A stretch of DNA of 28,557 bases from an uncultured Planctomycetales bacterium (GTDB lineage Bacteria > Omnitrophota > Gorgyraeia > Aquiviventales > Aquiviventaceae): NCBI GenBank assembly GCA_964373175.1, contig CAYJTP010000019.1, positions 1 through 28,557 on the forward strand, written 5' to 3'. Shown here in pieces: positions 9,068-27,620 of the stretch. Each line of letters begins with the position of its first letter. The stretch's first letter is position 1. Position numbers and translations under genes: made by a program. The notes under the pieces were generated by a model that saw only the letters and a list, made by a program, of their open reading frames with translations, was not told the DNA's origin and did not search any database.

Positions 9068-10552
9068 TTAAATTGCCCGAAGAACCTTCAGGATATCCAG
9101 CATGGCCCGCGTGTCGAGCTTGCAGTATTCGAGAAGACCGTCGTAGACCCGCCTTCTCTCCTCTTCCGCAACGCCGTCCGAAAAGGTCACCCGGGCATAT
9201 TCCCGGCTGGCCTGCCCGCCGTCCGAGATCGTCATTCCTTCATAAGACCCCCCGATGAGCGCAGGGTAGACGGACTTGATGGAGTACCTGCCGAGCTGTT
9301 TCGGATCGTAATAATCGAACTTCTGGAACGGCAACATCAGATCCAAGAGCCGCCCGTCAAGCTCGTTAAACCAATCGCCGTATTCCGGATAGGCCTCCAC
9401 CGACTCCCGCATCCGGTCCCGCTCGAAGCTCAAATGAAAAGCGAGGATGCTTCCCTTCGGACCCACCAGACGCTTGAGCCGGCTCAGGAACTCCGGCCGG
9501 GGGTCGCCCGGATCTTCGGCCAAAAACGCGTGGTGTGCAAGCTCTTTGTCCGGACCCCGCAAGATGTGCAGTGAGAACTGGAACGGCACCTGCTGGAAAG
9601 GCCGGGTCCCGTCATAAAAGGGGATGGCCGGATTTACCGTCTCGAAGTCTATGAAATGGACCGGGAATTCGATCTGTTCCATAAACGCGCGGATCGCGGC
9701 CCGGTCGGTGTGAGTCTTGTTTTCAACGTGGCACCGGTGGACAATCTGGTGGCTCACCGCCGTCAACTGCTCCGGCGGCACATCTTGAACCCGCACGCAC
9801 CCACCGTTGATAAACCCAAAGGCCTTCTCTTTCCGGATCTTGTTGAGCACAAAAACGCTGTCCTCCGGGATGTGCCGCCAGCACAGCTCTTGCAGCGGAC
9901 AATCGTAAGGCTTGCTGCACTGCGGCCCGATGGCAATCTCCGGGCATTCTTTCCGGCTCAGGACGCCGAGCATCCCGTTGACCCGCTCCTCCACCTGCGC
10001 GGACAATTCCCGGACTGGTTCTGTGACATCCTCCCTGCTCAGCAGGCCTTCGGGGTCGATCGGCCCGCTCTTCACGTACTCGTTGTTGACATGGACCAAG
10101 TAGACCTTCCCGATCTTCAAACCTGCCCCTTCGTAGCAGTATTTTTGGAAGGCGACGTCCTCGTAGTGGACCTCTTTCAACTCGGACGAGCTCTTCACCT
10201 CATAGAGGTCCCAGCGCCCACCCTTTCCGGGGGCCAGCACGTCGGCCCGCGCGTAGGTGCTCTTGTATCTAAAACCGGGCTCAAACAGCGGCTTGTTCAG
10301 CGGAAGAGCCGAGCGGGTCTCCCGGATAATCTTCTCAAAATCATCAGAACCCTGAATCTCAATTCCATTCCGAAAAAGCGTCTGGAACAGCCGGGTGACC
10401 CGGTGCCCCTGGTCGAAGAGAGCTTGGGTCTCAGGATCAGTCGGGGGGAATTGATCCTGGGCGTGGTAATGCATCCAGAGGAGCTTCGGGCATTTCAGCC
10501 CATCAAGGTATTTGCTTTTGGATAGGAACGGGGCTGTCTTTAGCGTGGCCAT
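9068..10552 (-). CDS. DUF2779-family protein: N-terminal Cas4/RecB-like PD-(D/E)xK nuclease, C-terminal domain with a D-x-E (IDFET) motif
   Basis: The N-terminus LSKSKYLDGLKCPKLLWMHY is the signature opening of the DUF2779/Cas4-like family. WDLYEVKSS is an ExK motif. Several Cys residues are present. The C-terminal half contains FIDFETVNPAIPF. Confidence 0.8.
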   Translation of the reverse strand: MATLKTAPFLSKSKYLDGLKCPKLLWMHYHAQDQFPPTDPETQALFDQGHRVTRLFQTLFRNGIEIQGSDDFEKIIRETRSALPLNKPLFEPGFRYKSTYARADVLAPGKGGRWDLYEVKSSSELKEVHYEDVAFQKYCYEGAGLKIGKVYLVHVNNEYVKSGPIDPEGLLSREDVTEPVRELSAQVEERVNGMLGVLSRKECPEIAIGPQCSKPYDCPLQELCWRHIPEDSVFVLNKIRKEKAFGFINGGCVRVQDVPPEQLTAVSHQIVHRCHVENKTHTDRAAIRAFMEQIEFPVHFIDFETVNPAIPFYDGTRPFQQVPFQFSLHILRGPDKELAHHAFLAEDPGDPRPEFLSRLKRLVGPKGSILAFHLSFERDRMRESVEAYPEYGDWFNELDGRLLDLMLPFQKFDYYDPKQLGRYSIKSVYPALIGGSYEGMTISDGGQASREYARVTFSDGVAEEERRRVYDGLLEYCKLDTRAMLDILKVLRAI

Positions 10553-10992
10553 CTTGTGAATTTGACAGCCGACGCCGTCGCTCTACGCACTACCCCGTCG
10601 CTATCTACCAAGAAAAACCACAACCCCAACCAACGAGCGGCTCTCCGCATCTCAGCGCTGAGGATCCGTCTCCTGTAGAAAGGGTGGTCCGGCAACGCGA
10701 CCGTGTAATAAGCGTTCTTCTGCCTCATCCGGAGAATAATTTGTCCGAGTACAGAGAGGAAGTAGTTATCCCTCTGCGCCGTTTCGCTGTAGCCGGTCGG
10801 GTAACCTTTGCACTCCACGAAGATGTAGTGTCGGTATCTGGGATGATATCCCACAACATCCGCCCCGTGGGCCGCGAGGGGGCGTTCGACATGAAGTTTG
10901 TAGCCACGATCGTGAAGGGCTTTCCTGATCGACCTTACAACGTAATGTTCACCAAAACGATTGCTCAATTTCAGCTGTCGCTTTCCCTTCAT
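10540..10992 (-). CDS. Mrr-cat-like restriction-endonuclease fold protein (150 aa)
   Basis: HGADVVGYHPRYRHYIFVECKGY matches the D-x-D...(Q/E)-C-K pattern of the Mrr catalytic domain. ATG 10990-10992 overlaps the TGA of the upstream gene (ATGA). Confidence 0.55.
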   Translation of the reverse strand: MKGKRQLKLSNRFGEHYVVRSIRKALHDRGYKLHVERPLAAHGADVVGYHPRYRHYIFVECKGYPTGYSETAQRDNYFLSVLGQIILRMRQKNAYYTVALPDHPFYRRRILSAEMRRAARWLGLWFFLVDSDGVVRRATASAVKFTRWPR

Positions 10993-11933
10993 ATGGAAGT
11001 CCGCGAAGGCGCTTCTCCCAAGAGCCGGCCTGTTTCCTGATAAGCAGCTTTAACGAGTTCGATGGCCGAAGCCATATCCTGGGGTCGCTTTACATGCGCC
11101 TGAATCTTAAAGACATCGGATTCCCTGACCGCCCTTTGTTTTCCAAGAGAATTACCCTGAGGGACTTTAGGTAGGCGAAGAATTAGGCGCAATCCCTCTC
11201 GCTGACAAGTGACGTAACAAACAGTTGCCCATCTCCTTTTAAGCATGAGCCTCTTTTTGCCGACCTTGTATTCCAAATCAGGCAATTGGTTCTTGAGCGC
11301 CTCCTCCAAACCCTCGTACAACCTCTGTAACGTCTTCGGAAGGCTCGCTGCAAAATCTGCGGCAGTCTCAACCTGAACAGCAGCTTGTACGGCTTTGCCT
11401 TCCCTGCTTTTCAAGAGCGGAGCGATTGAGGCAACGGCGACTGCCGGCTTGATTTGCTCGAAGGAAAGAGTGCTGTTGTCAAAGCGACTGAAGCGCCACA
11501 GCTCTATCGGAATATCCTTGAAATTGATGGCTGCCATCTGATGCGGCGTGAACCGTTGAGCCACAAAAAGGACCTTGGATTCAGCCCAATCGATGTCTTT
11601 CTTTGTCAGGTTCTTGCCGAACTTCTTGTTGTACTCCAGCACAAATTCAGCTTTGTTGTTGAGCATCGTAGCGAGGTAGGCATATCCTTGATCGATCACG
11701 CTTCCTCCCTCGTCTCGTTTGTACTCGATGATAACGAAAGCGTTCGTCTCTTCATCAAAGGCGACTGTATCCAGAGTGAAACTCTGAACCGTAAATTCAT
11801 GTGCCACCAACTGGAGGCCGAAGATCTGGTTCAAGTTGGTTTCCACAACAATCTGGATGTCTGCCTCCAACCGAATCGACTGCTCCGCAATCAACCGGAG
11901 CTTCTTATTCCCATCGAGCGAGTAGAGCGGCAT
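10989..11933 (-). CDS. PD-(D/E)xK nuclease-fold protein (N-terminal HsdR-N/NucS-like domain) with a C-terminal domain of unknown function, 314 aa
   Basis: LDTVAFDEETNAFVIIEYKRDE has a D...D...E-x-K arrangement after a helix. The gene is visibly AT-richer than the surrounding region. Confidence 0.6.
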   Translation of the reverse strand: MPLYSLDGNKKLRLIAEQSIRLEADIQIVVETNLNQIFGLQLVAHEFTVQSFTLDTVAFDEETNAFVIIEYKRDEGGSVIDQGYAYLATMLNNKAEFVLEYNKKFGKNLTKKDIDWAESKVLFVAQRFTPHQMAAINFKDIPIELWRFSRFDNSTLSFEQIKPAVAVASIAPLLKSREGKAVQAAVQVETAADFAASLPKTLQRLYEGLEEALKNQLPDLEYKVGKKRLMLKRRWATVCYVTCQREGLRLILRLPKVPQGNSLGKQRAVRESDVFKIQAHVKRPQDMASAIELVKAAYQETGRLLGEAPSRTSI

Positions 11934-12010: not shown

Positions 12011-12427
12011 CTAATAGCTGCTGTCTTCTACCTGCCGGGGCAATTTCACTTCCTTAAACAGGTAGGTTTCCTTGCACTTGGGACACTGCTTGTAGCTACC
12101 GTTCCCATACTCTTGGAGATACACCAACTTTTTGTCTGAGAAGCAGCCCGGACAGAAAAATCGTTCAAACGGTTTAGCGTCCTTCGCCCGATAGACAACG
12201 GCCCCTTCTGATGTTTGATATTCCTCTACCGTTCCCCTGAGTTGTTCCCATTCCCGTGTTTCATCCAGCTCTTTTTTATATTCGAGCATCTGCTCCTGGA
12301 GCTGCAGGTTTCTCTCGCGAAGATCTTGGTTCTGCTGCCTCAGCTCCTCGATATAAGAAAGGACTTGCAGGACCTCTTCTTGATTTACAAACCTATTGAG
12401 GGCAGAAAGAATCTCCTTCGGGTTCAT
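12011..12427 (-). CDS. coiled-coil protein with a C-terminal CxxC...CxxC zinc ribbon (138 aa)
   Basis: LRQQNQDLRERNLQLQEQMLEYKKELDE is a coiled coil; CPGC...CPKC follows. ATG 12425-12427 overlaps the MTase TGA (ATGA). Confidence 0.6.
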   Translation of the reverse strand: MNPKEILSALNRFVNQEEVLQVLSYIEELRQQNQDLRERNLQLQEQMLEYKKELDETREWEQLRGTVEEYQTSEGAVVYRAKDAKPFERFFCPGCFSDKKLVYLQEYGNGSYKQCPKCKETYLFKEVKLPRQVEDSSY

Positions 12428-15400
12428 TTCATCATGATCTCCTGTTTGGTTGTTCCTCGTGCTAGGTGACAAAGCCGTGGGTCGGCGGGCGGAGGATCGA
12501 GAACTGTCTGGTAGGGCTTCCCATCTGAGATGGCTCGTTGCATGGCGTCGTAGCGTTCCAGGATGACCCGCTTGGTGCGGTATTCGCCAAAGCGTTCCTC
12601 GTCCTTTTCTCTGACAATGGGAAAGGTGTCCAAGATGTAATCGGCATCTTCCTGGGAGATGCCATACAGGTGAAAAAAGGCGGCGTCTAACTCACATCGC
12701 AATAGAAACCGGCGCTCATCATCCCAACGAAAGGGCGGACTGCCATAGCCGAGGTCATTGGCAAAGGGTTTGAGGTCCCAAGCAGTAAAGGTGAGCTCAA
12801 GGACACGTTGAGCCACCCATGATCTAACCGATTCAGTCACTGCCCAAGCACATGCCTCGCCATAAATCGCAGGGGGTAAGACTGGAAACTGATTTACAAG
12901 GAAGAAGCTGAGGTTGACTCCGCCAATTTTCTGTCTAACGACATAGTCAAAAATGAATGCACATAAGTTAGCGTACAGTAGTCCAAAGTCCTTCGCATCC
13001 TCTGTACCAAGCACAACGGGCATACTATGCCCAACGCCAGCCCATGGAAACAACCCGGGATTCATTGTCCGTTCATTAGTGGGACTCGTTACGTTGGTGA
13101 AGCCGAGAAGCCATTGGCGATTCCACTTCCCTGCAACAGCTTGGTTGCACTCATGCTCCTTAACCCAGTAAAGTGGCATAACGACACGGTCCGGATTGAC
13201 AAGCTCCGAGCTATCGAGCGTGTCGGGTTGTGCTCTGCGCTGCCGCGCTCGAGCACTGACAACAACATCTGCTGCGCGATGGTTGTAAATCTGAGACATC
13301 TTGGCTTCGTAGAGGGGGAGATATCGGGAGTCGCCCTTGTGAAAAACGTTCCCCTCCAGGCGCCAGTCCTCGGCGATCAACTGGTCACGCGTGCGAAACA
13401 AGTGCGAATCGCTGGTCATATTAAACAAACCCTGGCTGAACGAGACGCCCCATGGATTTTCTTCTGGAGGACCCTCTTTAATCAACACCGGCACGCGGCG
13501 ATAGATGGCCTTGGTGATCTCGGCGTCCCGCTTTGTCCGGAAAATCGGGCAAGTCCTGGTGTTGGGGTTCAGAAGGGCAATTTCTTCGGCGGTCAGAGTA
13601 AAGCGACGGTCTTGTTCACCGAGGTCCTCCACCCTGTGAAGGAAGAAAGCAAACTCGGCGCCATCGGTAGTCGGCCGCCCACGGCCGGTCAGAGTGAGGA
13701 GGCAAAACTTCATTCGGCTGTGCACAGCAGGAAAAAGTTTCTCACGGTTCTCAAAGTCATAGAGACTCACCAGCGACCGTGACCCCACGAGATCCTGAAA
13801 GAAGAACTTGGTCGTGTCATCTGTGGCAATGCCTGTAGGGACGATCGCCCCTACCCTCCCGGAAGAGGAAATGAGCGTGCGCTTGGTTTCGGCGAAAATC
13901 GCATAGGTGTTGATACGACCTCGGCCGCAGAGTGGATAACGCCCAGAGTTGCCTGCGAAATGAGCCATCCCATCCGCATATCTTCGAGCCTCCAAAAACT
14001 CTTTGTAGAGCGCGGGGGCATGCTCTTCTAATTCCTCGATTTTGCGCTTGCGCGCCGCACCAGTTGGAGCATTGGCGATGTCGGGATATCGGGTAGAAAA
14101 CCACTCTTTTTCCTTCAGCTCGGTATGCTCCCACGGCGGATTCCCCAGCACCACGTCGAATCCTCCGCTCCAGCCGGCCCGAGCGTTCTCCGGTTTCCCT
14201 TCAGCCGGAACCCGAAAGACTTCCGGGAAAGCCAGGTGCCAATGAAAGAACCGGTATTGTCCGGCTAGCCGGACGATCTCCTCTTGGACAGCAGGTGGAA
14301 TGGAATCCGGATCCTTCTGAAGTTCCAAGAAAACCGCGTGAGTGATCGGAGGAGGGGCTCCGGCGGCTTTCTTCCACATGAATGCAGCACACCAAGCGTC
14401 GGCCACTAAACGGGCCTTGCGGTACTCAGGGGACTCTGTCAGACGGCAAAACTGCGCTTCCTTGGCCCGAACACCGCCGATGGAGTCTTCCGGCAAGGCT
14501 TCCAAGGTTTCTGATTGGTGAGATAACGTGGTGTAGGCAGCTTTCGGCTCGGCCACCGCCATCGCTGAAAAAAGAGTGGCTTGGCCGCGCCGTTCATCGC
14601 GGTTCTGCCGGCGCAAGCTGCTGCAGGTTTGTTTGTCGTCCCCCTCGATCTGCTGAAACGCCTCATCCGGGATGCCCTGTTTGAGCAAAGCCGGAGTCGC
14701 ACCAATTAAACTGTTCCCGCAAAGGATGTGGTGATCCAAGAACGACAGGGGCTTGCCGGGCTCAATCGCCTCCATCCAGAGCCCGATCTTGCACAGCTCT
14801 ACGGCCATGGGATTCTGATCCACCCCGTGAATGCAGTGGCTTATCACCTCTCGGAGTGCCGGGCGCAGGGCAGCCGGGGACGGCTCCTCATCGCCAGTCC
14901 GGATCTGAGCCAGGCGCCTGGCGATTCGATGAGCTGCCGCCACCAGAAAATGCCCGCTTCCACAGGCAGGATCGCAGACCCTTAAACCGAGGATCGCCCG
15001 CTGGGGATCGGATTGGCGGGCCGCCTCCTCCAGGACCGGCTCCAGGGCTGAATCCAGGAGACAGCGGATGAGACTGGCGGAAGTGTAGTAACTGCCGGTT
15101 GTTTTCCTCTCAAGACCGGACTCGGCGGAAAACCCAAAGGTGCGGGCATCGGTGTTCACATCCGGGTGAAGCTCCAATAGCGATTCATAGACGCTGCCGA
15201 ACTCCTCGGTCCCGAGATTTTTGAAATCCACAGGACGCTGCAGGTGATCCTGCTTAACCAGGGTAAGTGCCCGAACCGCAGTGAGAAGATCCCGGTTGGA
15301 CAGCTCACCGGAGCTGAGGTCCGGTGTCGCCTGCGGGGACCACAGAGAGCTTCCCAGAGCCGGCAGTGCCAGAGGGGGGCACCCCTCATCGCCGCTCAGC

Positions 15401-16464
15401 TTCTCCATCACGATCCGGAGAGACCGATAGAGGTCCGGATGGGCGGTTCCTCGCTGGCTCTCAGCCAGGCGCCGCAGGCGGGTGGCTGAATAATAGCGAA
15501 CGTATCGGTCTCGCTCCAAGACGCCTCTTTGGGGATCTGCAAGAAGTCCCCGCTCCTCAGCGACAAAGAGAAAAATGAGCCGGTACACAAGGCGGAGGAG
15601 CTGGCGGTAATAATCCTCCTTGAACAAGGCGCCGGAACGCAGCCGGTCGCGCAGCAGGGTGTTGGCTGGATGGCCCAGGAAGCCGGTCCCCAAGACACAG
15701 ATGGCGTCCTCCACACCAGACCGTAAGGTTTCCAGGGCGCGGATACCTTGCTCATAGGCGGCCTGAACCCATCGCTCCAGCCAGCATTCCTGTGGCGAAT
15801 CTCCCCCCAGGCGGGACTCATGGCAGAGCAGCCACAAAAGGGCGAAGTCGGCATAGACCTCCTCCGCCATCATTGTCTCCAGATCGAACTCCACACAGGC
15901 CTGCCGAGTAAGACTCGCGTTGTCACGAAGCAACCGCAAACGCAGGCCATTGGAGACGATCCCCCAGAGGTGATCCTCGCTGCGGTTCAAGAGCTCCTGA
16001 ACCAGCCCATGGGGGCTGATACGGGCCGCTCCGGCCACTCCGGGCTGGCGCTGGTCGAGATCAACACCAAATCCGATGAGATGAATGGGGACCTTCTGCC
16101 AAAAATGGGAGATGGGATAGGATTTTCCGGTAACCGTCAATGCTTTACATGCAGCCAGTCTGCCATAGCCCAACTCTTGGAAGAACAGGAGCAGCCAGCG
16201 ATCGCGGGTCAAGCCGGTCCCGAGGTCACCCGGGGACAGCTTTTCGCGCGCCTGCCGGAAAGAGTTCCAGGCGGGAAGGAGACGGGTCCACGCGCGGCTG
16301 ATCGCTTCGGTGACACGCTCGCCAGGGGCTACGAGATGATAAGCGGCGGGATCGAATCCTCCGAGGTTGCCATCCCCAGAGGCGATTCGGACCAAAAGAT
16401 CCGATGGAAAGAGACCTCCCTCAGCACGAACAGTAGCAAAGAAGCTACCTGAACCACCCCTCAT
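12424..16464 (-). CDS. large gamma-class N6-adenine DNA methyltransferase (DrmMI / PglX / Eco57I-like), ~1346 aa
   Basis: Motif I VCDPACGSGHFLV precedes motif IV VVLGNPPWE (NPPW). There is a long C-terminal extension ending ...GEYRTKRVILERYDAM.... ATG 16462-16464 overlaps the SNF2 TGA. The in-frame track ORF extends to 16626. Confidence 0.9.
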   Translation of the reverse strand: MRGGSGSFFATVRAEGGLFPSDLLVRIASGDGNLGGFDPAAYHLVAPGERVTEAISRAWTRLLPAWNSFRQAREKLSPGDLGTGLTRDRWLLLFFQELGYGRLAACKALTVTGKSYPISHFWQKVPIHLIGFGVDLDQRQPGVAGAARISPHGLVQELLNRSEDHLWGIVSNGLRLRLLRDNASLTRQACVEFDLETMMAEEVYADFALLWLLCHESRLGGDSPQECWLERWVQAAYEQGIRALETLRSGVEDAICVLGTGFLGHPANTLLRDRLRSGALFKEDYYRQLLRLVYRLIFLFVAEERGLLADPQRGVLERDRYVRYYSATRLRRLAESQRGTAHPDLYRSLRIVMEKLSGDEGCPPLALPALGSSLWSPQATPDLSSGELSNRDLLTAVRALTLVKQDHLQRPVDFKNLGTEEFGSVYESLLELHPDVNTDARTFGFSAESGLERKTTGSYYTSASLIRCLLDSALEPVLEEAARQSDPQRAILGLRVCDPACGSGHFLVAAAHRIARRLAQIRTGDEEPSPAALRPALREVISHCIHGVDQNPMAVELCKIGLWMEAIEPGKPLSFLDHHILCGNSLIGATPALLKQGIPDEAFQQIEGDDKQTCSSLRRQNRDERRGQATLFSAMAVAEPKAAYTTLSHQSETLEALPEDSIGGVRAKEAQFCRLTESPEYRKARLVADAWCAAFMWKKAAGAPPPITHAVFLELQKDPDSIPPAVQEEIVRLAGQYRFFHWHLAFPEVFRVPAEGKPENARAGWSGGFDVVLGNPPWEHTELKEKEWFSTRYPDIANAPTGAARKRKIEELEEHAPALYKEFLEARRYADGMAHFAGNSGRYPLCGRGRINTYAIFAETKRTLISSSGRVGAIVPTGIATDDTTKFFFQDLVGSRSLVSLYDFENREKLFPAVHSRMKFCLLTLTGRGRPTTDGAEFAFFLHRVEDLGEQDRRFTLTAEEIALLNPNTRTCPIFRTKRDAEITKAIYRRVPVLIKEGPPEENPWGVSFSQGLFNMTSDSHLFRTRDQLIAEDWRLEGNVFHKGDSRYLPLYEAKMSQIYNHRAADVVVSARARQRRAQPDTLDSSELVNPDRVVMPLYWVKEHECNQAVAGKWNRQWLLGFTNVTSPTNERTMNPGLFPWAGVGHSMPVVLGTEDAKDFGLLYANLCAFIFDYVVRQKIGGVNLSFFLVNQFPVLPPAIYGEACAWAVTESVRSWVAQRVLELTFTAWDLKPFANDLGYGSPPFRWDDERRFLLRCELDAAFFHLYGISQEDADYILDTFPIVREKDEERFGEYRTKRVILERYDAMQRAISDGKPYQTVLDPPPADPRLCHLARGTTKQEIMMK

Positions 16465-19316
16465 CCCGTGCTTCCTGGTAGAACACCTGTGACCGAAGTG
16501 GCTGGGAGGTAGACGTATACTCCCAGGATATCGGCCGGCAATTGTGGGATGATCCGGTAAGTCAAATGACGCAGTCCGGCCGCCTGGCGCACACGTTGGT
16601 GGGCTGCCAGAAGCGCCGCCGCCCAATGCTGGGCTCTTTGCTCGATATGTGGCCGCAGAGACCCGATGCCATCCACCACGCGTCGCACAAAATCCGCGGC
16701 TTGGTCCGGGGAGACGTTCGCATCCGGCTCGGCGCCAAGGATAGCTTCCGCGGCCTCGTCCTCCAGCCAGACAGCATTTTCAGGAGCTCCTTCAAAAGCA
16801 AGAAGGCGTGTCTCCTCGGCAAGCTGGGATTGCTCAGTCCCTCCTCGCCGCGTCACGAGATCGTACCGGAAACGGACGAGCAGAAGGGTCGTTCTCTTGG
16901 TAACGGCGCGGGTGCGGATGGAGCCGGACCGTTTGGCAACCCCCTCCGCGACCGGATCGAGCGCGCTTTCCAGAACGTAAGAAGCCAACGCCTCGATCAG
17001 GGGATGCGTTCTGGAAAGATAGTACGTGCCCTCCGCCACCGGAAGTTCAAAACGGACCCGGAAAGTGTCTTCGCAGCTCAGCAGATCCCGCAAGGCGCGC
17101 GGCGTTTCTCTCAGGTCGAAATGAAACTGCCCCCCCCTCTCGGAAATCACCGCTCCAAAAGCGCGAAGGGCCTCTACGGTAAAAGCGGCCACGTCTACGG
17201 CAGATCCCACGGCAGAGCGCGCCTCAGCAAGTTCACGGAAAACCTCCTCCGGCTTGATGGATTCTTGGGCAAAGACCGAGCGGGAGCGCTTCTCCTTGTC
17301 GGCCGCACTTTCCCATTGGGAATAGAGCTGTTCTTTTCTGGGTCTGAAAAACTCCTCAAAACCCGACAAAAGCAACTGCTGCTCCTCTCCTCGCCGCTGG
17401 CGCAGGAGAAGGCCTTCAAGAATTGCCTCCACCACCGCATTGGTATCCCCCGGGATAGGGATGGCGACCCCGGTGGAGTTCCGGATCGACCGATGTTTTC
17501 GAATGAGAACATCCAGCACAATGCCATCAATCTGGTTGTCAATCCCATAATAGGTAAGGACACGAACCGTAGACCGACTTTGACCATAGCGGTCCACTCT
17601 TCCGGCACGCTGTTCGTGCCGCGTGGGACTCCAGGAGAGATCGTAATGAATGACCGCATCGAAATGCTCCTGAAGGTTGATCCCCTCGCTCAAGCAGTCG
17701 GTGCAAACCAAGACGCGATGGGGGGCTTTTGACAGCTTGAGCACCTTGGCCTCGCGATCAGCAGGGGGTAACAAACCTGTAACGTCCTCGACCTCCACGC
17801 CGGCTGGCAGGCGCTTCCGCAGCTCCCGGGCAAGGTAGCCAGCCGTTGGGATGAAACGACAGAAGACGATTGGACGGTAGCCGTCCCGGAGGAAACCCTT
17901 AAGGTGCTCCACAGCCGAGAGCAACTTGATATCCTTTTCTCCCTCCAGATCTTCTGCTTGGCGGGCCATCTCAAGCAGGAGACGACGCCTGGATTGATCG
18001 GGCTCATCCTCTCCTCCCGGGTCGCTGCTCGGAGAAACGTCCACCCCTTCCGTGAGATCATCGGTGTCTGCGTCCAAGACGGTACGGCGTCCCCGGTCGT
18101 CAATCTCCTCCTCTGTCTCGGCCCCCGACAGGTCGGCTCGCACCCGCAGCGTGGCGGCCGCCGCTGCCGGGCTGGAGGCAAGCGACCGAAGAAGCGCCAG
18201 GGCTGCCCACCAGCGGACGCGCTGACGCTGGTGCCCGCCGGTCGAATCGGCTACCGTCTCGCGAGCGTAGCGAAGCACACGATCGAAGACACGGCGATAC
18301 TCATCTGAGAGCCGGTAGGTCTCCTCTTTCTCCTCGCGGTCAGGGAATGGTGTTTCTTCCTTCAGAAAATGGCGGATGTCAGCACGACGACGTTGAACCA
18401 AATGAGCAGCCAAGCGTTTCCGGTCGGCCTGATGTTCCGAACCAGCAAGGTTTTCCGGAAGCTCTGAAAATTCAGGCCGAAGGAGTGAGAGAAGAGATCG
18501 GAAGGCGGCTTCCTTGCCGCTGTGGGGTGTGGCGGTGACAAGGATCAAATGCCGGCTCTCATCAGAGGCGAGTTCTTTCAGGAGCTGATGCCGCTGGTGC
18601 CGGCCGCCCCGCCCCTCGTAGCCGAACGCGCAGGTGTGCGCCTCATCCACAATGAGCAATTCCGGTGCGTTCCGAATGAACTCGCCCCGGCGCCGCTCCA
18701 TCTTAATGAAGTCCATCGAGATGACCACGTGCGGATAGACCTCCAGAAGAGACTGACCGGGCCGACAATTCCGTTCCAAGCGACCTGCCGTGCTGGGGAG
18801 AACAAGCTCCGCCTCGATGTGGAATTTGGCGCTCAATTCCGCCTGCCACTGCTCCGCAAGATGCGGAGGGCAAAGAACCGCCATTCGGCTGATCTCTCCG
18901 CGGTCGAGCAGCTCTCGCGCAATCAAACAGGCCTCTACCGTCTTGCCAATACCAACGTCGTCAGCAATCAGCAGCCGGACTGGATTAAGCTTGAGCGCCA
19001 TCAGCAGGGGAACCAACTGATAGGAGCGCGGCTCTACCGCGATGCGGGCAAAAGAACGGAAGGGGCCGGCTCCAGAGCGGGATGACAGGCGGACCGCATC
19101 CCTCAACAACCGACAGGAACGATAGTCGCCCAATGCGGAGGGGTCCGGCATCTCGAACTGGGCAGATGAGACAGGTTCGAGCGGCAGGTAAATTCCGGTT
19201 TCTTCCGCAGCAGTCCCACCCAGCGGCCGCAGGACGAGCATATCCTGTTCCGAACCAGGCAGAACCACCCACTCCCGGCCCCTCGCTTTAACCAGGGATC
19301 CTACTCGAAAACTCAC
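16461..19316 (-). CDS. SNF2-family helicase (DrmD-like), 951 aa
   Basis: LIADDVGIGKTVEAC (motif I), LLIVDEAHTC (DEAH), QRAGRVDRYGQ (motif VI), plus a ~350-aa C-terminal extension. GTG start with a GGGAGG SD; it overlaps the upstream gene by 29 nt. Confidence 0.9.
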   Translation of the reverse strand: MSFRVGSLVKARGREWVVLPGSEQDMLVLRPLGGTAAEETGIYLPLEPVSSAQFEMPDPSALGDYRSCRLLRDAVRLSSRSGAGPFRSFARIAVEPRSYQLVPLLMALKLNPVRLLIADDVGIGKTVEACLIARELLDRGEISRMAVLCPPHLAEQWQAELSAKFHIEAELVLPSTAGRLERNCRPGQSLLEVYPHVVISMDFIKMERRRGEFIRNAPELLIVDEAHTCAFGYEGRGGRHQRHQLLKELASDESRHLILVTATPHSGKEAAFRSLLSLLRPEFSELPENLAGSEHQADRKRLAAHLVQRRRADIRHFLKEETPFPDREEKEETYRLSDEYRRVFDRVLRYARETVADSTGGHQRQRVRWWAALALLRSLASSPAAAAATLRVRADLSGAETEEEIDDRGRRTVLDADTDDLTEGVDVSPSSDPGGEDEPDQSRRRLLLEMARQAEDLEGEKDIKLLSAVEHLKGFLRDGYRPIVFCRFIPTAGYLARELRKRLPAGVEVEDVTGLLPPADREAKVLKLSKAPHRVLVCTDCLSEGINLQEHFDAVIHYDLSWSPTRHEQRAGRVDRYGQSRSTVRVLTYYGIDNQIDGIVLDVLIRKHRSIRNSTGVAIPIPGDTNAVVEAILEGLLLRQRRGEEQQLLLSGFEEFFRPRKEQLYSQWESAADKEKRSRSVFAQESIKPEEVFRELAEARSAVGSAVDVAAFTVEALRAFGAVISERGGQFHFDLRETPRALRDLLSCEDTFRVRFELPVAEGTYYLSRTHPLIEALASYVLESALDPVAEGVAKRSGSIRTRAVTKRTTLLLVRFRYDLVTRRGGTEQSQLAEETRLLAFEGAPENAVWLEDEAAEAILGAEPDANVSPDQAADFVRRVVDGIGSLRPHIEQRAQHWAAALLAAHQRVRQAAGLRHLTYRIIPQLPADILGVYVYLPATSVTGVLPGSTG

Positions 19317-22300
19317 GCTGCCTCCCGAAGATGTGTGGGTATTTTGAAATCACGCTGTCCCAATCTTCCCCTCCATTGAAGCGAATCACGGTGTAACCCG
19401 CATCTTCCATGCACGCCGTCTGCGCATGATCCCTCTGCTGGCGCTCCGGGTAGGTGTGTGGAGGGCCGTCAATGTAAATGGCAGCCTGAGATTCTTCGTA
19501 GAGGAAATCGGGCCGAGTACGGCAAGTCTCAACCAAGCACTGGGCACGAGAGGGCAAACGAAGATCCCTGGCATCGAGATACCTCAACCATTCCCGTTCC
19601 AGGTCGGAACCGCATTGCTTTATTAAGACAGCAAGATGCTCCGACCGGGAGGTCGGACCGGAGGAAGAGATTCCGGTAGCCCGTGACAGCTGGAGGAGAA
19701 GCTCCCGAATGCTCTGGCGGTCCAGCAGGCGGTGATCCATCTGATTGGTGTAACTCATCAGACAGTCATAGCAGGCCGCCTCGCAGTCCGTCTGCGCCCT
19801 CTCGACGCGGCGCTTGTCTTCACCTGTATCCGGGTCGTAGTGGCAAAGCTCCAGCGCTCGCCTGGCTAAACGAGCCATCGCACCGGGTTCCAAGAGCCGG
19901 CGAAGGACTCCCGCTCCACCCTCCGCCGCTTCATAGAACAGGATCAACCGCCGCTCTTTCCATGAAGGCAGGGCCTCAGCAGCTAATTCCGATTCCTCAA
20001 GCTGGTATTCCACCTGGATGGCGTTTTTCAACGCGGCCTGGAGCGAAGCCAACACGTTGGGTTCCGCTTCCGCGGACAACTGGAAGAGGAGACAATTTCT
20101 CCTGTCTTCCACATAGGGGATCACCCGACGGGTCTGCTGTAAAGTAACGTCCTGGTCATCGTCCTCTACATCTTGCTCGTTCTTCGCCCAGAAGCCGCGC
20201 TCGACGTCCAAGACAAACCCATACCGCTCTTGCTCCGCACGCCGCCGCCACCCCAGATTAATCCTCCAAAGAGTGGCGGTATGCCCGTAAGTCAGATCGG
20301 CCAAGACGTCTCCGTTCAAGACCACCTGCCCCGCAAGACAAGAGGAACGCTGACCATGCTCAGCGAACCGGACACCGGTCTGCAGCTCGAAGCCCTGTCG
20401 AACTCGCTCTTCCTCATCGGAGTTGATCTGGTTCTTACGCCGGGTACTGACATTTTGAAGACGGAAAAGCGACGCAAGCGGCGCCGGCAATTTCCCACCA
20501 CATCGGTCGCAAAGGTCTGGACCGCCTCCGCCAGATATGGGGTGCAGATACCCGCAGTGATCACACTGCTTTGCGGAGGTAGTCACCAGATCATTGCTGT
20601 CATCCCGCACAGGAAGGATCACTCTGTCGATTTTGTAGCGAGAACCCTCATGGTAGATGATCGACTGTGGGCCAAATTCAGAGATTGCCAAAAACCGCGG
20701 CCGGGACAGGAATTCGTTGGTACCCCGCATCTGCCGGCGGCCTGGGATATAAGCCGACAGGGGCAGTCTCGGAAAGCTGTATCCCGGGAGGAACCCTTCG
20801 CTCGCGAAATAGCGGTAGCTGTAAAAATCCGCCTCGATGGCATTCTGTGCCTCCCTCAAGAGATCCAGTTGCGCTTCCGCTTCAGCGCGAAGCCGCTTGG
20901 CCCGGTTTTTGTCGTCTTGGCTCCTCGTGGCGTCCGAGATGATCCTGTGCTGAAGGTCGCGCTGACGAGAGGCTGCTCGGTACAACGTTCGCCACCGTTC
21001 ACAAGCAACGTCGAAATGCCGAACGGCCTGTGCGAGCACCTCGCCAAGCCATCCCTCACTGTACCAATCGGCTGTCGCTAGCTCCGGGAGAATGCTATCC
21101 AGAACACGGCGGGCGCGGACAAGGGCTCTCTCGCGAATATGGGGATCGTTGATCGCATCTCGAATGTGGGACTGAAATGCGAAGCTGGGTTCCTCCCCCG
21201 AAAGATCGAGAACGTCTTTCAGCGAAGTGCCGAGCCCGATGCCCGTTTCGGCAAGCCAGATCGCATGAACATGCGCCCGTATGAGGTCTTCATTGGTGAG
21301 ATCAAGCTGCGGCGGCATCACCTGGCCGGTCACCATCCGGTCGGGCCTGCGGAAGAAATACTGGTCATGGGAACTAAATGTGGAGCAATAAGAAAATACC
21401 AGTGCAGGGCGACCGCTGCGGCCTGCGCGTCCGCTGCGCTGTGCGTAGTTGGCCGGGGTGGGCGGGACGTTCCTGAGGTTCACCACGTTGAGCTCCGCAA
21501 TATCCACACCCAGCTCCATGGTAGGAGAGCAGAAGAGAATGGGCAACCGGCCCTCGCGAAATCTCTCCTCCCGATCCTGCCGGACTTCGTATCTTACCTG
21601 GGCGGTGTGTTCCCGTGCCTCCAGACCGATTCCATCGGCAGCGACGTTGCGATAGAAGTCAACGAAAAACGGATTTGTCCGGCCACCGTCCGCAGGCGGC
21701 CTCGGCACTCGAATCGGGTCGTAAAACGGCTGCTGACCATCCCCTTCCGTCCAGACAAGCGCGCTGGCCAACAGTTGATACCCCGGGACATCGTCACCCT
21801 TTTTCGGGGCAGCGGCCGCTTCAACTAGACCGGCAACCTGGAGCGCCTTTAGGAGGTCTCGGGTAATATGCAGGGAATCCTGAACATTCAATCTCCGGCC
21901 TGCGCCTGTAAATGTAGAGCCCCGTCGAAGGTACTGACCGAATCCGCCTCTGGGCGATAAGCAGAGGTTCCTCTTATATTCCTGCGGCCGGGACGGTCTG
22001 GGGTAAAGAAAGGTTGAGGGCTCCATCGTTTCGTTTTCATCAATCGCCCAAGGCGAGATCAGATGCTGCGAGCTCATCTGCTGGATCCGTTCTTGGACGG
22101 CGGGATCCAGATAGTCCACCTTGATGGCCATCTCGCGTCGCATATAGTCGAGGAGGGTCTTCGCTACCGCCATCCTTGTCTCCGGCTTCGCAGAGGCCAA
22201 AGCTGGATGCAGGTCTTTCCATACATCCTCTGCCTGGCAAAGCTCATCCAAGGAACGGTAACGGATTTCAAGCAGGCCGCACTGCTCAAGGTTCGGCAAG

Positions 22301-24483
22301 GTAACACGCCAACCCCGTTCAAGATCGCGGTAGAGACGGTAGCCCAGGACCCACCGTAGGGCGCGTTTAGTCTCCTCAAGGGCTTGGAAACGAGCTTCCG
22401 AATTGCTGGCATAGAACTCCAATGGCAGATTCAAGGCTTCGAAAACACGCTCGACTAGAAACTCGTGGGAAAGCCCCTCCTGCCCGACTGCCTTTACAGC
22501 CTTGTACAGGGCCGAACGGAGGACTCCAATCTGGAGGAAGTCGTTGAAATGACCGGCTTGCAAAGAGGCATCCTGCCTGTTGTCCGTGAAGCTGAGAAGC
22601 TTGCGCGCATGCCCAGGGAGATCCTCCGCCTTTTTGAGGTAACGAATCGCGGCAAGGCTGAGGATCGTAGTGGCCGTGCTTCGCCCTTCTGTCGCAAGAG
22701 AGGTCAATTTCGCGAAGTCAGAACGCTGGCGGGCTCCGTAGGCAACACCGCAGGCAAGGCAGAAGTGGAAGGGGGCAGGGACATAATGGAGGTCGGTGCC
22801 GCCTTCTCCTTCAACCGCCTCCGTAGAGACTCGCACGGGTTTGGGGATCCACTCCTGGCGATCTTTCCGAACACGAAGAGAACCCCGGAATTCCTCAAGA
22901 CAGTCTTCCGGAAGAGATTCCAGAACCTTCCCTGGATCTGTTGGCCAGGGGTGACTGGAGCTCAAGTAGAGGAAGCCAGGCTCCCCCTCCTCATCGTTAA
23001 ACCGGTCAGAGAGGGCACGCGGGGAAAATGCTCGTAACCCGTTCGTCTCATCCTTTTGGACGCGCACACAATAGTATTCCTGTCCACATTCTCTACAGAA
23101 AACAAGCGGCAGGAGGACGCGTTTCCGATCTCCTGGGACGTAGCGTTGCCCTTGAACGGCGAGGTAGCGTTGATTCTCTGGTTCAATTGAGGCGTAAATC
23201 GTGTCCCCCCGGCTGATAAACTGATGGAGGCGGAAAGCAAAGACCGGGAATCCGGTTTCGGGGTTGAGCTTGCGGTAGCTTGAGAGGAGATGGCTCTCCA
23301 TCGCAAGAACACATTGCTTCTCCGTTAACCCTGTAAGTTCGCTCAATTCCTTGGCGGCACCCTGTTCTCCACCGATTGAACGGGGTTTCGCACGAACGGG
23401 CCGCCCCGTGCCCGGCTCCGAGGCAAGCCCGAACACAGATTCAATCCAGACGGAGAGGGGGTCGTTCAAAAACGAGCGGTAATCTAACGTCTCTCCGGCT
23501 GGTCCTGCTTCTATTCTCTGACGAAGCTGGGCGGAAAATCCGGGGTGTCGGAGGCCCTCGGACGGTGTTGCGCGGCGCACACTTTCTCCGATGATGTGTT
23601 CCGGCTGAACAAGCGAGCCAAACAGTCGCGTAGCAACAGCCGCTACCTCTGCTTGCTGCTCGAAAAGGGTTCCGGAACCAGCGATCGTCGCTGAAGTGCC
23701 AACGTACTGAATTTTCTCTGCACCAAAGGCGTCCTTCGCACGGCGAACCAGCATGGCCACATCAGCCCCCTGACGGCCGCGATAAGTATGGAGCTCATCC
23801 AGTACAAAGAAACGAAGCCCCTTGGCGGCCGCGATAAGGGCGCGTTCATAAGGGCGGGTTAAAAGCAACTCGAGCATGACGTAGTTGGTAAGCAAGATAT
23901 CCGGTGGATTCGCGATGAGACGCTGCCTCTCTTCATCCTGTTCCTGCCCCGTGTAACGAGCAAACGTCACCTGCGCCTTTCCTCCCGGAGAAGAACTGAG
24001 GAAGCGTTCCAGCTCGTGAAGCTGACTGTTGGCCAAGGCATTCATGGGATACACAATAAGCCCTCGGATACCCTTCCCCGAACCCTCGCGCAAGATGTGG
24101 TCTACAATCGGGATGATGTAAGAAAGGCTTTTCCCGGAACCGGTCCCCGTCGTCAACACATAGTTGGTTCCTGCATGAGCGGACTTAATAGCTTCTGCTT
24201 GATGTTTATACAGGCGTAAAGGCTTTTTTGATCCATCCGACCCGATCAAGAGAAATATTTGGCGGCAGGCTGGATGCAAGATTCCACCTTCAACAAGCTC
24301 TTCCACCGATTCCCCCATCTCAAACGCCGGATTAATCTGAATCATGGGATCAGGCCAAAGGAGTCCGCCCTTTAAGGCTTGCCCGACTGTTTCTTCAATG
24401 CGGGGATCCTGGATGTGGATGAAACTCTGGATGTAATCGCCGTAATACGTGATCAGCCTATTCCGCAGATCAAAGACGTTCAT
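19288..24483 (-). CDS. 1731-aa DEXH-box helicase of the DrmA/MrfA(YprA) type with CxxC zinc modules (DUF1998-like) and a C-terminal DUF559/Vsr-like endonuclease domain
   Basis: KHQAEAI...[17 protein letters not shown] (Q motif / Walker A), [11 protein letters not shown] (DExH), TSATI. Motifs V and VI (TMELGVDI...[12 protein letters not shown]) lie ~700 aa further downstream. CRECG...CLACG and CDHCG-x17-CDRCGG are zinc modules. The C-terminus ...[45 protein letters not shown] matches the DUF559/Vsr PD-(D/E)xK pattern. Confidence 0.9.
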
Positions 24484-24746
24484 GTATTCATCCCCACGCG
24501 GACTCGTTTCAAAGGTTTTTTAGAGAACTGGCTGGTTACTGCCTGTAAGGACGGGGTAGTTTCAATTCTCGATGCAATCCAAGCGGCAAATTCCTCTTTA
24601 GGGAACCGCCAGACCCCACCCACCTTGAAGCCGGGGAGTTTCTTCTCGCGGGCCAGGCGGGTAACGGTGAAAGGGTGGAGCTTAAGAACACGAGAAAGCT
24701 CGTTTGGCGTAAGGAATTCCATGTTTGTCTTCATCGGGGGTTGCAT
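24480..24746 (-). CDS. Xis/excisionase-family HTH (HTH_17-like) DNA-binding protein, first gene of the defense operon
   Basis: LTPNELSRVLKLHPFTVTRLAREKKLPGFKVGGVWRFPKEEFAAWI matches the MerR-like excisionase HTH. Its TGA overlaps the helicase ATG (ATGA). In-frame ATGs at 24746, 24734 and 24722 leave the exact start uncertain; the track ORF runs to 24842. Confidence 0.6.
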   Translation of the reverse strand: MQPPMKTNMEFLTPNELSRVLKLHPFTVTRLAREKKLPGFKVGGVWRFPKEEFAAWIASRIETTPSLQAVTSQFSKKPLKRVRVGMNT

Positions 24747-24893: not shown

Positions 24894-25820
24894 GTGGGGA
24901 AACTGGTCAACGAGTTCTCATGGTCAAAATCGCAGGACGAGCAGTTTAGGGAGTGCCGGAGGCGGTACCACTACTCCCGCTACGGATCTTGGGAGGGCTG
25001 GCCAAGCGGTGACGGGGATGCCCGGGCAAAGGAGCTGTACCAGCTTAAGCAACTGAAGACCGGGCGGATGTGGCTTGGTGAGGTCGTCCACTGGACGATC
25101 GAGCAGGTCTTGAAAGGAATGCGGTTTGGACACCCTCCGACGGAGGCGGAGGCCATGGAGAAACTCACGGCCCGGATGCGACAGGATTTCCAAGATTCCA
25201 AAGACGGACGCTACCGCCAGGATCCCAAGCGGATCTGTAGGCTCTTTGAGCATGAGTACCAGATGAACATCCGGGATGAGAAGTGGGTCCAACTCCACGA
25301 AACGGCCCAAAGGTGCTTGAGGAATTTCTTCCAGACGAAGATCTACCAGCAGCTCCGGCCGCTCCGGCGGGATCAGTGGCGTGCCATCGAAGAGCTGGAG
25401 GAATTCATCTTCGAGGGGACCAAACTCTTTGTGAAACTGGACCTTGCGGTGGCAACAGGAGATGGGTTGCTCATTGCGGATTGGAAAACCGGCCAGGAAG
25501 AAGATGTGGACTTTGACGTGCAGCTTGGAATCTATTTCCTCTTCGCCGTCACAAAGTGGCGATGTCCACCAGAGAGAATTGAAGCGCTTCAGGTGGAGCT
25601 GGCGTTGCCCAAGGAAATTCTGCACCGTGGGCAGGCGGCCAAGGTGGAGTGGGTGCAGCACTACATCCGGAACAGCGTCACCGCAATGAAGGCCAACTTG
25701 CGGGATCCTGAGAAGAACCTAGCCGTCGAGGAGGATTTCCCGAAAGTGAACCAATACCGGAGCTGCTCATGGTGCAACTTCAAGCGGGTTTGCCAGCCGG
25801 AGGTGCTGGCTGTTTCGTAA
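24894..25820 (+). CDS. Cas4-like PD-(D/E)xK nuclease with a C-terminal Fe-S Cys cluster (PDDEXK_1/DUF83-like), stand-alone
   Basis: The N-terminus EFSWSKSQDEQFRECRRRYHYSRY is the S-x-S...C-x-R-x-YY opening of Cas4/RecB nucleases. LDLAVATGDGLLIADWKTG supplies the D...D-x-K motifs. The C-terminal CSWCNFKRVC is C-x2-C-x5-C. Confidence 0.8.
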   Translation: MGKLVNEFSWSKSQDEQFRECRRRYHYSRYGSWEGWPSGDGDARAKELYQLKQLKTGRMWLGEVVHWTIEQVLKGMRFGHPPTEAEAMEKLTARMRQDFQDSKDGRYRQDPKRICRLFEHEYQMNIRDEKWVQLHETAQRCLRNFFQTKIYQQLRPLRRDQWRAIEELEEFIFEGTKLFVKLDLAVATGDGLLIADWKTGQEEDVDFDVQLGIYFLFAVTKWRCPPERIEALQVELALPKEILHRGQAAKVEWVQHYIRNSVTAMKANLRDPEKNLAVEEDFPKVNQYRSCSWCNFKRVCQPEVLAVS

Positions 25821-26858: not shown

Positions 26859-27620
26859 TCACGCGTCCTGCCAGGCGTCGCATTGTTGGCGGTAGGGACA
26901 ACTCGGGCAGGTGAAATTCGGGTTGGGATAGAACAGGTCGGACTGGATCCCCTTGGCGACGTGGCCCAGGAGCTTGAGGAAGCGGGCGTGGTCGCGCGGG
27001 GCGCGGACGGCCGGAAGGTGAAGCACCTTGGGCGTTTTGGTGCGAACCATCACGTCGAGCCGGAGGCCGGCTTCCGGCCGGCCCTGGGTAAGCCGGTGCG
27101 CGAGGGAGTAGGCCGTCAACTGGAAATCCTGCCTCACCTGCTCCGGCGTCGGGGCCCGCTTGGTGGTCTTGTGGTCAATGATGAGGCCGCGGGAGTCCAC
27201 CAGGTCCACCCGGCCGACAAAGGTGTAAGGGGCGTTCTCGAAGGCCAACTCGAACTTTTCCTCCACCCTCTGCGGCTGGATGTCGGGAGAGACGGTAGAG
27301 TGGTAATGGCCGACGATCCGAACCCCCTCGTCCTTGATCTGGCCCGGCTTCTCCTCCTGGTCGAAGGCCGTCTCCGGCACCTGCATCTTCCAGGCATCGC
27401 TGAAAGCATCGGTGACCTGGGCGAGCGGCAGGTCTTCCCTGCTCTGCACCTTCTGCGTGAAGTTCACCTCCAGCGCCGAATGGACCGCCGAGCCCAACGC
27501 GAGCTCGCTGCTCTTGGGGGTCGGCAGGCGCTGGACATACCGGTAAAAATACTTGAGCGGACAGAGCAGGTAGGTCTTGACCTGGCTGACCGACAGATGC
27601 TCACGCTGCATCGGAATCAC
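26859..27620 (-). CDS. Cas4-like PD-(D/E)xK nuclease with a 4-Cys Fe-S cluster, stand-alone
   Basis: LSVSQVKTYLLCPLKYFYRYV (N-terminal Cys), GRVDLVDSRGLIIDHKTTK (D...D-x-K), CPSCPYRQQC (C-x2-C-x5-C). AAGGAGGTGA SD 7 nt upstream of ATG 27620. Confidence 0.8.
   Translation of the reverse strand: MIPMQREHLSVSQVKTYLLCPLKYFYRYVQRLPTPKSSELALGSAVHSALEVNFTQKVQSREDLPLAQVTDAFSDAWKMQVPETAFDQEEKPGQIKDEGVRIVGHYHSTVSPDIQPQRVEEKFELAFENAPYTFVGRVDLVDSRGLIIDHKTTKRAPTPEQVRQDFQLTAYSLAHRLTQGRPEAGLRLDVMVRTKTPKVLHLPAVRAPRDHARFLKLLGHVAKGIQSDLFYPNPNFTCPSCPYRQQCDAWQDA

Follow-up and report, generated by a model that had tools for sequence, protein, structure and literature searches.

A three-gene operon headed by a giant YprA/MrfA-family helicase-nuclease gene is a probable ARMADA Type I anti-phage system

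The stretch of DNA studied here (28,557 nt, referred to in its full length as the window; contig CAYJTP010000019.1 of GenBank assembly GCA_964373175.1, from an uncultured Planctomycetales bacterium that GTDB places in the Omnitrophota) carries three tightly packed minus-strand genes with overlapping junctions, and this operon, above all the giant gene that stands first in it, is the subject of the present report. The giant gene (19288..24483) is a single open reading frame (ORF) whose 1731-aa product was recognized through Pfam, PADLOC and its homologues as a helicase-nuclease of the YprA/MrfA family, ArmC-like in the terms of the ARMADA Type I anti-phage systems. It is followed by a gene for a 951-aa SNF2-family helicase (16461..19316; BrxHII/RapA/DrmD-like and ArmA-like), which has a 29-nt overlap with the giant gene's stop and is preceded by a GGGAGG ribosome-binding site. 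The third gene (12424..16464) encodes a PglX/DrmMI-like N6-adenine methyltransferase of 1346 aa, counted from the ATG at 16464; this start is backed by gene calls and by the junction sequence, and forms an ATGA overlap with the SNF2 stop.

An earlier note on this DNA, made from its letters alone, had read the giant gene as encoding one polypeptide, and the results bear this out. The reading frame runs unbroken through 1731 codons, and the identical protein, with the same neighbours, is called on two independent metagenome assemblies. Among the more than 8000 database clusters of homologues, the best 120 are collinear with the giant protein at 59-68% identity, and nearly all of them are 1677-1853 aa long. 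They stem from Chloroflexota, Planctomycetota, Acidobacteriota, Actinomycetota, Myxococcota, one archaeal metagenome-assembled genome (MAG) and others. A frameshift or a separately translated insert was considered and is ruled out, because the homologues are collinear and nearly all full length and because the protein was recovered in two assemblies. The conservation of Cys/His and catalytic residues was scored in 36 diverse homologues, the set to which invariance refers below unless another is named; overall, the ATPase, zinc and nuclease residues are invariant in sets of 36 to 59 homologues. A look-up of the giant protein found no accession on record.

Pfam places four families on the giant protein, namely DEAD (residues 93-268), Helicase_C (953-1024), MZB/DUF1998 (1481-1575) and DUF559 (1658-1704). 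Its structure was predicted with AlphaFold2 (AF2) in two overlapping pieces, of which the model of residues 1-1100 is confident (pLDDT, for predicted local distance difference test, 87.5; predicted template modelling score 0.83) and that of residues 1050-1731 moderately confident (pLDDT 76.6). The first 92 residues (24208..24483) are helices and short strands ahead of the first RecA lobe, modelled at a pLDDT of about 77-94, and they hold the position of the N-terminal region that Bell et al. (PMC12458937) describe for YprA helicases. Next comes a contiguous RecA1 lobe (residues 93-300; 23584..24207), identified by AF2, Pfam DEAD and its motifs, with motif I (GTGSGKS, 113-119), motif II (DELH, 229-232) and motif III (TSAT, 263-266), all before residue 270. 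The second lobe is in two pieces. The first piece (residues ~599-640; 22564..22689), a helix and a strand delimited by AF2 and conservation, holds motif IV at 629-639; the second (residues ~953-1062; 21298..21627), matched by Pfam Helicase_C and alignable to residues 1077-1197 of the Druantia helicase DruE, holds motif V (TMELGVDI, 988-995) and motif VI (QRSGRAGR, 1015-1022), whose residues are invariant. The earlier note had correctly placed motifs I-III early in the protein and motifs V and VI some 700 aa later; the distance from motif III is ~720 aa, which puts them near residue 1000. It had overlooked motif IV, which lies inside the supposed insert. Ten of its 11 residues are invariant, and the family has no longer run of this kind; it has the position and form of a motif IV, aligns weakly to LLTFTDSRQ of DruE (PDB 9tu7), and supplied the search pattern (SFTDNRQD) for related loci. 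Because motif IV sits within the supposed insert, RecA1 is intact and RecA2 alone is interrupted; the two-lobe superfamily 2 core is a normal one. The "split RecA lobes" of the earlier note thus describe RecA2 but not RecA1, which is whole, with a two-domain insertion merely sitting between the lobes.

The material between and within the lobes consists of three folded domains (pLDDT mostly 80-96), none of them disordered, so the suggestion that the long insertion resembles a trigger loop falls away. Past RecA1 lies a five-helix domain (residues ~305-410; 23254..23571) with AF2 helices at 314-330, 335-340, 342-352, 376-384 and 388-402, called "BrxA-like" by Bell et al. (PMC12458937) and "FHD" in a DruE cryo-electron microscopy preprint. 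It has no Pfam match, and fold searches returned helicase-core matches only, so its likeness to BrxA rests on the published name. A beta-rich zinc module follows (residues ~415-598; 22690..23241), with AF2 strands across 417-569 and a Cys4 site formed by C463 and C466 (CRECG at 463) and C575 and C578 (CLACG at 575). All four cysteines are conserved in 36 of 36 homologues, the two motifs are where the earlier note had seen them in the intervening region, and by sequence profile the module is collinear with the CxxC pairs of the helicase 9wae. The third domain, large and mostly helical (residues ~641-952; 21628..22563; pLDDT mostly 80-96), lies inside RecA2 and has no significant Pfam match; isolated insert segments likewise gave nothing significant in Pfam, the best being DNA_III_psi at 7e-4, under the cut-off and taken as chance. 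Bell et al. call this domain "MarR-like" (PMC12458937), whereas the DruE preprint calls it "Cap" and disputes the MarR assignment.

Downstream of the core, a helical region (residues ~1063-1215; 20839..21297) forms a long hairpin of AF2 helices 1153-1183 and 1189-1210 (pLDDT about 75-87), which fits the coiled-coil "finger" described for ARMADA YprA homologues in PMC12458937. It leads into a linker, an OB fold and a CON sheet (residues ~1216-1470; 20074..20838), in which the stretch 1219-1235 is near-invariant and the CON sheet is a long antiparallel one at about 1365-1470 in the AF2 model. Residues 1212-1282 are near-invariant in sequence yet poorly modelled, likely through their packing partners having been cut away. 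The OB fold carries one inserted Cys4 module (20488..20586), the only such module between residue 1216 and the CON sheet, with CDHCG at 1307 and CDRCGG at 1325 and with C1307, C1310, C1325 and C1328 all invariant. An MZB/DUF1998 zinc-binding domain comes next (residues ~1475-1600; 19684..20061; Pfam MZB 1481-1575, E 1e-10), alignable to DruE 1614-1729, in which H1548, C1567, C1571 and C1574 never vary and C1547 is kept by 32 of the 36 homologues. Since MZB adds a conserved Cys/His site, the giant protein has three metal sites rather than two. The two Cys4 modules of the earlier note exist and are invariant, but the MZB site at 1481-1575 had been missed, and the spacer of its second ribbon, given as CDHCG-x17-CDRCGG, is 13 residues. 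The top structural match for both halves of the protein (RecA core, OB-CON and MZB) is Bacillus subtilis MrfA/YprA (PDB 6znp), and the OB-CON-MZB "canopy" resembles that of MrfA and DrmB. MrfA itself has 750 aa, lacks the insertions and the fused nuclease, and acts in repair with a separate exonuclease, MrfB.

The C-terminus (residues ~1610-1720; 19324..19656) is a Vsr/DUF559-fold nuclease domain, as the earlier note had proposed, and Pfam, AF2 and conservation agree on it. The AF2 fold at 1613-1702 is alpha-alpha-beta-beta-alpha-beta, and DUF559-like motifs lie at 1657-1702, including IYIDGPPH (1669-1676) and GYTVIRF (1696-1702). DUF559 scores 22.8 bits on the full protein, against a cut-off of 20.6, and 27.2 bits on the isolated C-terminus, and it is matched by all 18 homologous C-termini tested (best E 8e-9). 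A profile of these 18 C-termini retrieves 3hrl from the PDB and aligns to a hand-entered Escherichia coli Vsr sequence with an hhalign E of 1.7e-4, although BLASTP of the C-terminus against E. coli Vsr gave no alignment. In this profile alignment, E1629, D1659, D1672/H1676 and D1685 pair with Vsr E25, D51, the histidine-rich segment H64-H72 and D97, respectively, and D1659 sits in an RPDF motif identical to that of Vsr. The catalytic Asp and His residues, whose loss had been named beforehand as the sign against such a nuclease, are in place: E1629, D1659, D1672, H1676 and D1685 are all invariant, and the Vsr-type acidic/His constellation is, as judged from sequence, intact. The closest known nucleases are Vsr (PDB 1cw0), DUF559 (3hrl) and the catalytic domain of I-Bth0305I (3r3p). 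With Vsr the domain has in common the RPDF Asp, a Glu of the first helix pair and an RD motif. Like DUF559, it has lost the structural zinc site that Vsr carries (CFWH..C region), and whereas Vsr is a stand-alone mismatch nickase, the domain here is the C-terminal module of a helicase.

The SNF2 protein, recognized by Pfam SNF2-rel_dom and Helicase_C, matches in PADLOC the "DpdE" model PDLC02853 over its full length (6e-271) and DrmD (2e-80), and among NCBIfam models it scores 310 bits for DISARM_DrmD, against a curated cut-off of 610, and 197 bits for DpdE, against 500. As an aside, PDLC02853 may truly represent ARMADA-type SNF2 proteins in spite of its label, and could in that case mislabel such loci as Dpd. 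The methyltransferase matches Pfam Eco57I and N6_Mtase, carries DPACGSG and NPPW motifs, matches DrmMI in PADLOC (2e-67), and falls well under the NCBIfam curated cut-off for BREX PglX. The neighbourhood was compared across 85 related loci, of which 80 came from species-representative genomes and five surrounded database homologues. The SNF2 gene is next to the giant gene on the same strand in 63 of the 64 related loci with at least 3.5 kb downstream, and the order helicase-SNF2-methylase holds in 49 of the 51 with at least 9 kb downstream, across many bacterial phyla and also on an archaeal MAG contig.

Gene order and protein architecture together lead us to read the operon as an ARMADA Type I anti-phage system, with the giant gene as its ArmC-like YprA/MrfA-family helicase-nuclease, at a probability of roughly 85%. 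ARMADA was defined by Bell et al. 2025 (PMC12458937), who describe a BrxHII/RapA-like helicase and a PglX-like methylase shared with DISARM class 1, together with a YprA-family helicase closest to Druantia DruE. For Type I the same paper gives the order YprA homologue, BrxHII-like gene, methylase (representative WP_108720193.1) and a helicase with a "BrxA-like" helical domain past RecA1, a beta-barrel CxxC zinc module, a "MarR-like" RecA2 insert, a coiled-coil extension, one OB zinc module, DUF1998 and a C-terminal Vsr domain predicted to be active. The giant protein has the YprA-family core with DUF1998/MZB that marks Type I, and the present locus shares with Type I the gene order, the helical domain past RecA1, the beta-rich CxxC module, the large insert in RecA2, the helical hairpin, the single OB zinc module, DUF1998 and the C-terminal Vsr domain. 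The five-helix domain and the RecA2 insert stand at the Type I positions, their resemblance to BrxA and MarR folds resting on the published names. The core of the operon shows no difference from Type I; the local extras are a helix-turn-helix (HTH) gene and a 138-aa gene, both unconserved in related loci. The locus is thus an ordinary member of an already described and very common family and system. The E. coli Type II system, ArmABCD, also has the three protein families, the insertions, a Vsr-type nuclease and the Walker and NPPW motifs, but its order is ArmA-ArmB-ArmC-ArmD, it has a fourth, GajB-like/RelE gene and two OB zinc modules, and its ArmC ends in additional domains, an EEP and a second Vsr, that are absent from the giant protein. 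The scan of the window ORFs turned up nothing UvrD/GajB-like, and the YprA gene comes first, unlike in Type II. Membership of Type II is ruled out by the gene order, by the lack of a GajB-like gene among the ORFs scanned and by that of EEP and second Vsr domains.

The nearest models and structures belong to other systems, which calls for weighing these against ARMADA Type I. In PADLOC the giant protein scores best with DruE3 (1e-100) and DruE1 (7e-93), compared with 5e-17 for DrmA models, and its top solved relatives by sequence profile are DruE 9tu7 (E 1.4e-64) and the 1970-aa helicase 9wae; in profile comparison both are collinear with it through the zinc module, motif IV, RecA2 and MZB. DruE (type III-A, 9tu7) shows the same pattern of insertions on an MrfA-like core: a five-helix domain, a zinc module of large size and a Cap that splits RecA2. 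That the giant protein is DruE of a Druantia-type system is nevertheless very unlikely, a shade more so than the DISARM reading treated below. Scanning of the window ORFs brought up no DruA-D, DruF/G/M or DruH gene, and the conserved partners are an SNF2 helicase and an adenine methylase, whereas DruE of type III-A, of about 2100 aa, has DruH as its partner and two terminal PLD domains instead of Vsr. The C-terminus of the giant protein is a Vsr domain with intact residues, whereas type III has a PLD pair there and types I and II a Vsr that is degraded (PMC12458937). PADLOC 2023 predates ARMADA and has no model for it, and DruE is merely the nearest model that it offers; a helicase nearest to DruE fits the position of ARMADA beside Druantia.

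The earlier note had instead taken the locus for a DISARM class 1 variant, with DrmA and DrmB fused and a Vsr nuclease in place of DrmC, and in favour of this the SNF2 protein does match DrmD (PADLOC 2e-80; NCBIfam DISARM_DrmD 310 bits) and the methylase DrmMI. An SNF2 helicase and a large adenine methylase beside a YprA-family helicase with DUF1998, and a helicase-associated nuclease, are indeed common ground with DISARM class 1 (DrmD, DrmMI, DrmA, DrmB, DrmC). We nevertheless consider this reading very improbable. The SNF2 protein stays far under the curated DrmD cut-off, the DrmA models match far more weakly than DruE, and drmA and drmB do not occur as separate genes: a single ORF holds both parts, in the window as in every listed homologue. 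In DISARM the nuclease is a separate PLD protein, whereas the window ORFs scanned yielded no PLD domain; an EVE-like domain and a trigger loop belong to DrmA, whereas the giant protein starts RecA1 at about residue 93, behind 92 confidently folded residues, and has neither an N-terminal EVE-like domain nor a disordered trigger loop. DISARM also lacks the inserted five-helix, zinc and Cap domains, and the literature sets such an architecture apart as ARMADA (PMC12458937). What survives of the proposed replacement of DrmC is that a nuclease is fused to the helicase where DISARM has, according to the literature, a separate PLD gene, but the system is not DISARM. Least probable of all is that the giant protein is a housekeeping repair helicase of the MrfA/YprA or Lhr type, with Vsr serving mismatch or crosslink repair beside unrelated neighbours. 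Vsr is itself a repair nuclease, but the linkage to the SNF2 helicase and the large methylase is tight, translationally coupled and kept across phyla; homologues at about 60% identity are scattered over distant phyla, an archaeon among them, a patchiness that fits horizontal transfer; the gene lies in a lower-GC stretch with defence-type PDC-S18 and PD-(D/E)XK genes; and the insertion domains are common only to the defence branch of the family, according to PMC12458937.

For the ARMADA Type I operon, we infer that the giant protein most likely acts as a 3'-5' single-stranded DNA translocase that delivers a Vsr-type nuclease to DNA unmarked by the methylase. By analogy with DISARM and BREX, the methylase would mark host DNA; the helicase would load on unmarked phage DNA, at forks or where it is single-stranded, and move 3' to 5'; the tethered Vsr-type domain would nick or cut the DNA along which the helicase is threaded; and the SNF2 ATPase might aid target finding or remodelling. 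The defence would be direct rather than abortive, as for ARMADA Type II, in which, according to PMC12458937, protection is non-abortive and depends on every gene, on the Walker motifs in both ArmA and ArmC and on the methylase's NPPW motif. A second ARMADA study reports that loss of armC from Type II gives the phenotype seen when the whole system is deleted. As for polarity, DruE binds single-stranded DNA and is a 3'-5' DNA helicase dependent on it (DruE study), and 3'-5' movement has been measured for both MrfA and DruE.

Several points weigh against the assignment and this mechanism. The match to Type I and to its representative WP_108720193.1 was made on the published description. The experiments in the available texts of both ARMADA studies concern Type II and none concerns Type I, and no Vsr-domain mutant is reported there; Bell et al. 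(PMC12458937) mark the Type I domain "active?". Discrimination of self from non-self by methylation would be an analogy with DISARM and BREX. Finally, in one DruE study defence did not depend on the fused PLD domains, and no nuclease activity was seen in vitro, from which it follows that a fused nuclease need not be the effector, the likely role that the earlier note had given to the giant protein. It is accordingly conceivable, though improbable, that the system is ARMADA Type I and the Vsr domain is not its effector, defence coming from helicase action alone, by unwinding or displacement, or from a nuclease encoded elsewhere. The degraded Vsr domains of Druantia I and II (PMC12458937) and the PD-(D/E)XK genes that flank the operon in the window would suit this possibility. 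The five invariant Vsr-domain residues, on the other hand, indicate selection on catalysis across diverse homologues; the flanking PD-(D/E)XK genes are nearly absent from the 85 related loci; and another DruE study calls DruE a helicase-nuclease effector (PMC13192584). A more specific and tentative idea, which we hold to be somewhat less probable than not, is that in this minimal, three-gene kind of operon the Vsr-type domain is the sole nuclease, a strand-specific nickase carried by the 3'-5' translocase and active only on DNA without the operon's adenine methylation. If so, ARMADA Type I would be a restriction enzyme that a helicase drives and whose nuclease fold is that of mismatch repair; in the literature available to us, we found no report of such nickase-on-unmethylated-DNA biochemistry for any ARMADA.

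The value of the assignment lies mainly in a correct label for a very common and little-annotated gene cassette, for which DISARM would be the wrong name. Relatives of the giant helicase occur in at least 597 species-level genomes, and its matches at E <= 1e-10 amount to at least 8000 protein clusters, a number that includes more distant YprA-family helicases; public annotation of such genes reads only "DEAD/DEAH box helicase". The questions that remain belong to the ARMADA Type I family rather than to this locus in particular, and the compact three-gene Type I operon is a convenient test case for those concerning phage protection, Vsr cutting and the reading of methylation.

The operon lies within a lower-GC stretch (0.49-0.61, compared with 0.62-0.66 at 2-9 kb) together with several defence-type genes: a PDC-S18/DUF5655 gene (10989..11933) and a gene for a DUF2779 Cas4-like protein (9068..10552) on the minus strand, and genes for PD-(D/E)XK proteins at 24894..25820 (plus strand) and 26859..27620 (minus strand). 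In the 85 related loci, tblastn with the flanking genes gave a single weak match for the 308-aa PD-(D/E)XK gene and another for the DUF2779 gene. No tRNA gene was detected in the window, nor any integrase among the ORFs scanned. Immediately upstream, an excisionase-family HTH gene on the minus strand (24480..24734; HTH_17; MAD1-like, under the MAD1 cut-off) has an ATGA overlap with the start of the giant gene. It was considered as a conserved regulator and rejected, being found upstream in only two of 85 related loci, which makes it a local addition rather than part of the core. At the other end, the minus-strand 138-aa ORF (12011..12427) has an ATGA overlap with the methylase stop. It reaches the cut-off of no Pfam family, and none of the 85 related loci has a homologue of it; it may be an accessory specific to this locus, or the call may be spurious.

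Some related loci carry additional genes within the operon. In eight of the 64 loci with enough sequence downstream (L015, L007, L022, L028, L043, L045, L076 and L082), about 2.43 kb separates the YprA-like and SNF2 genes. In L015, the only one of them examined, positions 15520-17601 encode a 693-aa GajB-like UvrD helicase (PADLOC GajB 4e-37), so that this locus would hold an ArmD-like gene in a Type-I-ordered operon, placed differently from Type II. The YprA homologues of L015 (1839 aa) and L043 (1842 aa) have an extra ~110 aa past the Vsr domain. In L001, UPF0175 and bAvd/23S_rRNA_IVP four-helix-bundle genes lie between the SNF2 and methylase genes (18170-18816), and several other loci have inserts of 0.5-6 kb at that junction. 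The methylase of an actinobacterial relative (L004, 13652-18235; L005, 8459-13042) is 1527 aa long and has a Peptidase_S24 (LexA-like) match.

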